DNA of 64,000 nt from Escherichia coli (GTDB taxonomy: Bacteria; Pseudomonadota; Gammaproteobacteria; Enterobacterales; Enterobacteriaceae), in NCBI RefSeq assembly GCF_044324875.1, contig NZ_CP172185.1. One strand, given 5' to 3'. A program made the position numbers and the translations under genes. The notes beneath the pieces are model-generated. The model saw only the letters and a list, made by a program, of their open reading frames with translations. It was not told the origin of the DNA and did no database searches. Positions 43,891 to 43,975 of this stretch are shown here, piece by piece (within the stretch, counting starts at the first letter, position 1; each line of letters begins with the position of its first letter).

Positions 43891-43916
43891 AGTTGTTTTC
43901 CTGTATGAAAAACCAT

Positions 43917-43958
43917 TACTGTTATTGTGTACAGTATAAACTGGTTTTATATACAGTA
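43917..43958 (-). promoter_or_regulatory. Tandem LexA (SOS) boxes in the recN promoter
   Basis: TACTGTTATTGTGTACAGTA (43917-43936) and ACTGGTTTTATATACAGTA (43939-43958) fit CTGT-N8-ACAG, 26-70 nt upstream of the recN start. Confidence 0.65.
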
Positions 43959-43975
43959 AAGAGGCTGGCGTAAAA

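Follow-up and report, generated by a model that had tools for sequence, protein, structure and literature searches.

Evidence for a LexA-repressed recN promoter with three operators in the nadK-recN intergenic region of Escherichia coli

Introduction

What role do the closely packed palindromes between nadK and recN play in Escherichia coli? The gammaproteobacterial LexA operator, or SOS box, is a 20-bp imperfect palindrome with the consensus TACTG(TA)5CAGTA. We examined a 64,000-nt stretch of the E. coli chromosome (the window), in which positions 43891-43975 make up the entire nadK-recN intergenic region, 85 nt in length and 32% G+C. A first-pass annotation of this stretch had proposed two adjacent SOS boxes ahead of recN. 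Our results support that reading in substance, with errors of detail only, and they make it highly probable that the intergenic region is a LexA-repressed recN promoter bearing three LexA operators. The sites, their scores, their position on promoter-like hexamers, and their deep conservation were computed here, and LexA binding and induction by DNA damage are taken from the literature.

Genomic context of the recN control region

The region is flanked by two genes on the minus strand:

42229-43890, minus strand: recN coding sequence, 553 aa, the gene under control (open reading frame list and translation, RefSeq annotation)
43976-44854, minus strand: nadK coding sequence, 292 aa, upstream of recN on the same strand (RefSeq annotation)

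The downstream gene had been named recN from its sequence, and protein family models confirm this name. The NCBIfam equivalog NF008121 scores 1066.9 bits, far above its cutoff of 418, and covers residues 1-553, while a second model, TIGR00634, scores 576.4 bits vs. a cutoff of 407.85; the RefSeq annotation agrees. The upstream gene is likewise identified by the NCBIfam NAD(+) kinase model NF002893 (567 bits vs. a cutoff of 386), and the nadK stop codon forms the boundary of the recN control region. A 501-nt query spanning nadK-recN finds 100% matches in many complete E. coli genomes, in which the genes are annotated as nadK and recN.

Three LexA boxes ahead of recN

Three LexA boxes lie between the two genes, in the following order from the nadK side:

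43939-43958, minus strand: LexA operator 1 (box 1), TACTGTATATAAAACCAGTT, the strongest of the three, CTGT-N8-CCAG
43917-43936, minus strand: LexA operator 2 (box 2), TACTGTACACAATAACAGTA, perfect CTGT-N8-ACAG
43899-43918, minus strand: LexA operator 3 (box 3, weak), TAATGGTTTTTCATACAGGA, ATGG-N8-ACAG, in the 5′ UTR

The first-pass annotation had described two CTGT-N8-ACAG palindromes separated by 2 nt. Box 2 is exact, and its core at 43919-43934 is the sole exact match to this pattern in the 64-kb window, but the core of box 1 (43941-43956 on the recN strand) has one mismatch and reads CTGT-N8-CCAG. The separation of 2 nt holds for the conventional 20-mers (43958-43939 and 43936-43917), whereas the 16-nt cores are 6 nt apart. 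Both boxes are thus present where two had been claimed, but the third and weaker one at 43899-43918, which overlaps box 2 by 2 nt, had been missed, and the minus strand had been left unstated. The palindrome feature of SOS boxes (CTG and CAG arms 10 nt apart) is complete in boxes 1 and 2 and partial in box 3, whose left arm retains only TG. Box 1 is identical in sequence to the recN SOS box in Table 4 of PMC3009722. Inverted, box 3 nearly repeats box 1 (15/20 bases agree), and the operator region as a whole (43899-43958) is a nested inverted repeat.

We scored these sites by their heterology index (HI), using a Berg-von Hippel matrix rebuilt from 17 published E. coli LexA boxes (MEME-aligned, PMC3009722 Table 4), with the recN box left out to avoid circularity. 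On this matrix, which differs from the original Lewis 1994 matrix and gives values that are not comparable with published HI numbers, box 1 scores 2.42, box 2 scores 6.21, and box 3, in the opposite orientation, scores 8.72. These are the three best-scoring loci when both strands of the 64-kb window are considered, and all three fall inside the range of established operators, for which the leave-one-out HI is 0.95-12.44 (median 7.05, n = 17). Scoring with a LexA matrix had been proposed as the check on boxes 1 and 2, and low scores were seen for neither.

One might suppose that the palindromes arose by chance in an AT-rich spacer and have no regulatory role, and counts of the bare pattern are compatible with such a view. 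CTGT-N8-ACAG is observed once in the window where 0.47 matches are expected, and 35/100 shuffles contain at least one; when one mismatch is allowed, the window holds 23 matches vs. 18 expected. The bare palindrome pattern alone is not above chance, so a position-specific score is needed, and it is scoring of the full-length 20-mer that is decisive. Dinucleotide-preserving shuffles of the window (n = 200) produced no site with HI ≤6.3 and a mean of 0.09 sites with HI ≤8.8. The full-length scores are also far outside those obtained by shuffling the 32%-GC intergenic region itself: among 20,000 such shuffles, a site with HI ≤6.3 arose in 0.015%, and two separate sites with HI ≤8.8 arose in none.

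The fourth-best LexA-like 20-mer in the window lies inside a coding region:

45205-45224, plus strand: LexA-like 20-mer inside grpE, AACTGGATATTGAAAAAGCT, HI 11.64

We rejected this site as an operator because its score is at chance level, with shuffled windows averaging 1.4 sites with HI ≤12.

Boxes 1 and 2 overlie a predicted recN promoter

Promoter scanning and direct reading of the sequence place the following elements ahead of recN:

43955-43960, minus strand: −35-like hexamer, TTTACT (promoter scan)
43933-43938, minus strand: −10-like hexamer, TATACT (promoter scan; 16-nt spacer from TTTACT)
43899-43902, minus strand: Shine-Dalgarno-like AGGA, 8 nt before the ATG (read off the sequence)

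TTTACT-16-TATACT is the sole promoter-like site in 43700-44200 and agrees with the consensus at 9/12 positions, although one site vs. 0.9 expected by chance in the 500 nt scanned proves little alone. Conservation of the hexamers among species (see below) speaks for the promoter assignment. Boxes 1 and 2 overlie these promoter-like −35 and −10 hexamers, as the first-pass annotation had held. Box 1 spans 4 nt of the −35 hexamer and the entire promoter spacer, and box 2 spans 4 nt of the −10 hexamer together with the predicted recN transcription start, which we infer to lie near A43926. The overlap is one of shared sequence as well as position: boxes 1 and 2 each begin with TACT, and the two hexamers (TT-TACT and TA-TACT) each end with it. 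LexA dimers bound there would therefore occupy bases that sigma-70 polymerase has to read. Nearer to the gene, the right arm of box 3 overlaps the Shine-Dalgarno AGGA.

The same nested inverted repeats might instead act through nucleic-acid structure, either as an RNA hairpin (a terminator, or a mask over the ribosome-binding site, in nadK read-through) or as a DNA cruciform. The predicted RNA fold of 43880-43995 is indeed stable (−25.2 kcal/mol, z = −3.8, matched by 0/200 shuffles), with box 1 pairing with box 3 and box 2 forming an inner hairpin, and since a terminator scan found no terminator-like site between nadK and recN, read-through RNA is possible. However, a fold of this kind is what three near-palindromic copies of the same consensus would be expected to give. 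It is not followed by a U-tract, an Rfam scan of the whole window matched no family within the nadK-recN intergenic region, and because the predicted recN start is downstream of box 1, the outer stem is impossible in recN mRNA. The columns that vary among species are the spacers (see below), as LexA sites predict. We regard a structural role as very improbable, and only nadK read-through RNA, or DNA as a cruciform, could adopt the nested-repeat structure.

Conservation within E. coli and across gammaproteobacteria

Within E. coli the region varies very little. A 151-nt stretch around the region has at least 99% identity in 5,327/5,426 E. coli records. When the window was compared in one alignment with K-12 BW25113 and with the most divergent of the listed strains, every box and hexamer was free of differences. 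The sole difference between the window and K-12 BW25113 in the 151 nt is A43894, where K-12 and also strain KV7 have G; this position, 4 nt ahead of the recN ATG, belongs to no box or hexamer. Nothing of substance therefore separates the window from K-12 BW25113, and the window is a strain variant with one 5′-UTR SNP. The nadK-recN junction is without a match in 1/5,426 complete E. coli genomes, and one record holds a plasmid copy.

For a wider sample we took one genome per species and used a degenerate RecN N-terminus pattern, which gave 120 gammaproteobacterial recN loci (1.05 Mb). LexA-like sites are concentrated upstream of recN: 186/189 sites with HI ≤9 fall in the 150 nt upstream of the gene, a density of 10.5 per kb vs. 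0.003 per kb elsewhere. Among 55 Enterobacterales loci, box 1 has HI ≤9 in the same register in 48 and box 2 has HI ≤9 in 39, and box 3 reaches HI ≤10 in only 11. To a chance origin of the palindromes, we thus assign practically no weight. The region is extremely conserved within E. coli and across three orders, published experiments agree with operators (PMC8072944, PMC10714372, PMC12133099, PMC12211044), and the shuffle scores together with the cross-species enrichment upstream of recN exclude such an origin.

Conservation also resolves the individual boxes. In a footprint drawn from an ungapped stack of 23 genus labels, the onset of conservation is sharp at the −35, and box 1 and TTATACTGTA show hardly any variation. 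The arms of box 2 are invariant (ACAG is fixed) and its spacer varies freely. In box 3, the conserved positions are TG and ATACAGGA, the latter containing the Shine-Dalgarno AGGA.

The arrangement is not found everywhere. LexA-like sites with HI ≤10 are absent from the 150 nt ahead of recN in Xenorhabdus mauleonii (L114), in two Haemophilus loci (L062 and L086), and in three MAGs (L012, L068, and L110), as they are from the 24 nt of upstream sequence available for locus L120. A single strong box is present in Pectobacterium (L067 and L097) and Rosenbergiella (L037 and L057). Because some loci have one box or none, the multi-operator design, though common, is not shared by every locus.

Promoter geometry and the 22-nt spacing of the boxes

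The distance between boxes 1 and 2 is regular as well. Site pairs are exactly 22 nt apart in 58/81 cases across all loci, and the spacing of box 1 and box 2 is 22 nt in every one of the 37 Enterobacterales loci in which both have HI ≤9. The hexamer prefixes accompany this spacing: among the 58 pairs spaced 22 nt apart, TTTACT occurs at the upstream box in 58 (TT prefix) and TATACT occurs at the downstream box in 54 (TA prefix). The 22-nt register and the hexamer prefixes are common to Enterobacterales, Aeromonas, and Shewanella/Parashewanella.

Promoter geometry suffices to account for this spacing, since the hexamers are made from the TACT of the boxes and 22 nt is the sum of a 6-nt hexamer and a 16-nt spacer. 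An alternative is that the spacing was fixed for cooperative contact between LexA dimers on one face of the helix. Twenty-two base pairs is about two helical turns, the exact recurrence of this distance in the 58 pairs would suit such contact, and cooperative binding has repeatedly been proposed for multi-operator SOS promoters (PMC7440846). However, dimer contact is unneeded once the spacing follows from the hexamers, and cooperativity between dimers was not detected at the two-operator lexA promoter (PMC7440846). We consider dimer contact an unlikely basis for the spacing. The account in which each box supplies part of a hexamer bears modestly on whether cooperativity between LexA dimers is required at SOS promoters with several operators.

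Status of box 3 and operator turnover

Of the three boxes, the third is the one whose function is most readily questioned. Only boxes 1 and 2 may work, with box 3 being 5′-UTR and ribosome-binding sequence that happens to look like one half of an SOS box. The left arm of box 3 is ATGG instead of CTGT, its HI is approximately 11-12 in most Enterobacteriaceae (8.7 here), and only 11/55 Enterobacterales loci have it at ≤10. FIMO missed the corresponding box 3 of Salmonella, for which the published HI is 12.97 (PMC8072944). In addition, the conserved part of the box, ATACAGGA, includes the Shine-Dalgarno AGGA, and because the conserved right arm overlaps this element, conservation of box 3 need not reflect LexA. 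Several observations nonetheless favor an operator. The left arm has a conserved TG at the spacing that a 16-mer requires, the site ranks third in 64 kb, and it is counted as a box in the literature (PMC8072944, PMC10714372, PMC3323433). Furthermore, Erwinia and Pantoea, in which box 2 has decayed to an HI of about 10-15, have a perfect CTGT-N8-ACAG at this site. On balance, we see a nonfunctional box 3 as a minority possibility that deserves to be taken seriously, and we retain box 3 as the weak member of a three-operator promoter.

The Erwinia and Pantoea loci merit closer description. We compared the 70 nt upstream of recN in eight of them (L038, L043, L074, L084, L088, L093, L108, and L109). 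In all eight, box 2 has lost its ACAG arm, which reads CCAT or CACA, and its HI is 9.8-13.9. Box 3 is a perfect CTGT-N8-ACAG in 7/8 of these loci, with HI 7.2-11.7; the exception is L038, in which the left arm is GTAT and the HI is 16.4. The loss of box 2 and gain of box 3 in Erwiniaceae suggest an operator turnover that would keep the number of sites. One extension of this idea is that the recN region is an ancient "operator-in-promoter" module in which total LexA occupancy, not the individual sites, has been selected; this is a speculative proposal that we think is probably wrong. Compensatory turnover, if real and undescribed, would add a small new point on the evolution of multi-operator SOS promoters.

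LexA regulation of recN and comparison with known promoters

A mechanism for the control of recN can be proposed from the arrangement of boxes and hexamers and from what is published on the SOS response. In uninduced cells, LexA would fill the sites and block initiation at both promoter elements, and box 3, lying in the 5′ UTR, would probably contribute further occupancy or a roadblock immediately downstream. Upon DNA damage, RecA-ssDNA filaments would bring about LexA self-cleavage, and the emptied LexA sites would then permit strong transcription of recN.

Several published studies concern the same locus. The recN gene of E. coli has three SOS boxes (PMC10714372, citing Rostas 1987), and its promoter belongs to the minority of SOS promoters that have more than one operator, most having one (PMC7440846, citing Rostas 1987 for recN); up to three LexA sites are reported for recN in E. 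coli and Vibrionaceae (PMC3323433). A repressor footprint seen at recN by Reg-Seq vanishes with H2O2 (PMC12133099), and a lexA-defective strain shows a 128-fold rise in recN (PMC12211044). The first-pass annotation had described recN as one of the most tightly LexA-repressed genes, with multiple operators, and these five reports, with their three operators and strong SOS induction, uphold that statement.

The window therefore presents a known system. Its recN promoter is the same locus, with the same three LexA operators, as the K-12 promoter of Rostas et al. 1987 (cited in PMC10714372 and PMC7440846), and for this reason the finding is already known: the LexA control region of recN has long been described, and recN is among the most strongly induced SOS genes. 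In Salmonella enterica, recN has three boxes at 8, 26, and 48 nt from the ATG, distances equal to those here, and is strongly induced by damage (39-fold; PMC8072944). The Salmonella boxes differ in sequence, with published HI values of 12.97, 7.72, and 8.82 on the authors' own matrix, and box 3 is weaker there. Other multi-operator SOS promoters resemble recN in part. The E. coli lexA promoter has two adjacent LexA operators and colicin promoters have two overlapping ones, whereas recN has three sites, and the four 3′ bases of both hexamers (−35 and −10) come from two of them.

Only the account of the 22-nt spacing by hexamers placed within boxes and the apparent turnover in Erwiniaceae may be mildly new. 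The value of the recN region is rather as a positive control for reading function from sequence alone, and it is a case in which full-length scoring and cross-species conservation are significant where the bare CTGT-N8-ACAG pattern is not.

Other features of the window

The ssrA tmRNA gene lies at 39730-40092 on the minus strand (Rfam, 292.8 bits). In an annotated genome that matches the 501-nt query at 100%, ypjA comes directly after ssrA, and no integrase or prophage genes are annotated at ssrA, a common integration site. Four further RNA features reach the Rfam gathering score, each of them ordinary for this region of E. coli:

2468-2539, minus strand: MicA sRNA
31775-31847, plus strand: tRNA (tRNA-Ile in the annotation of the matching genome)
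57959-58084, minus strand: pheA leader
61390-61528, plus strand: RyfD sRNA
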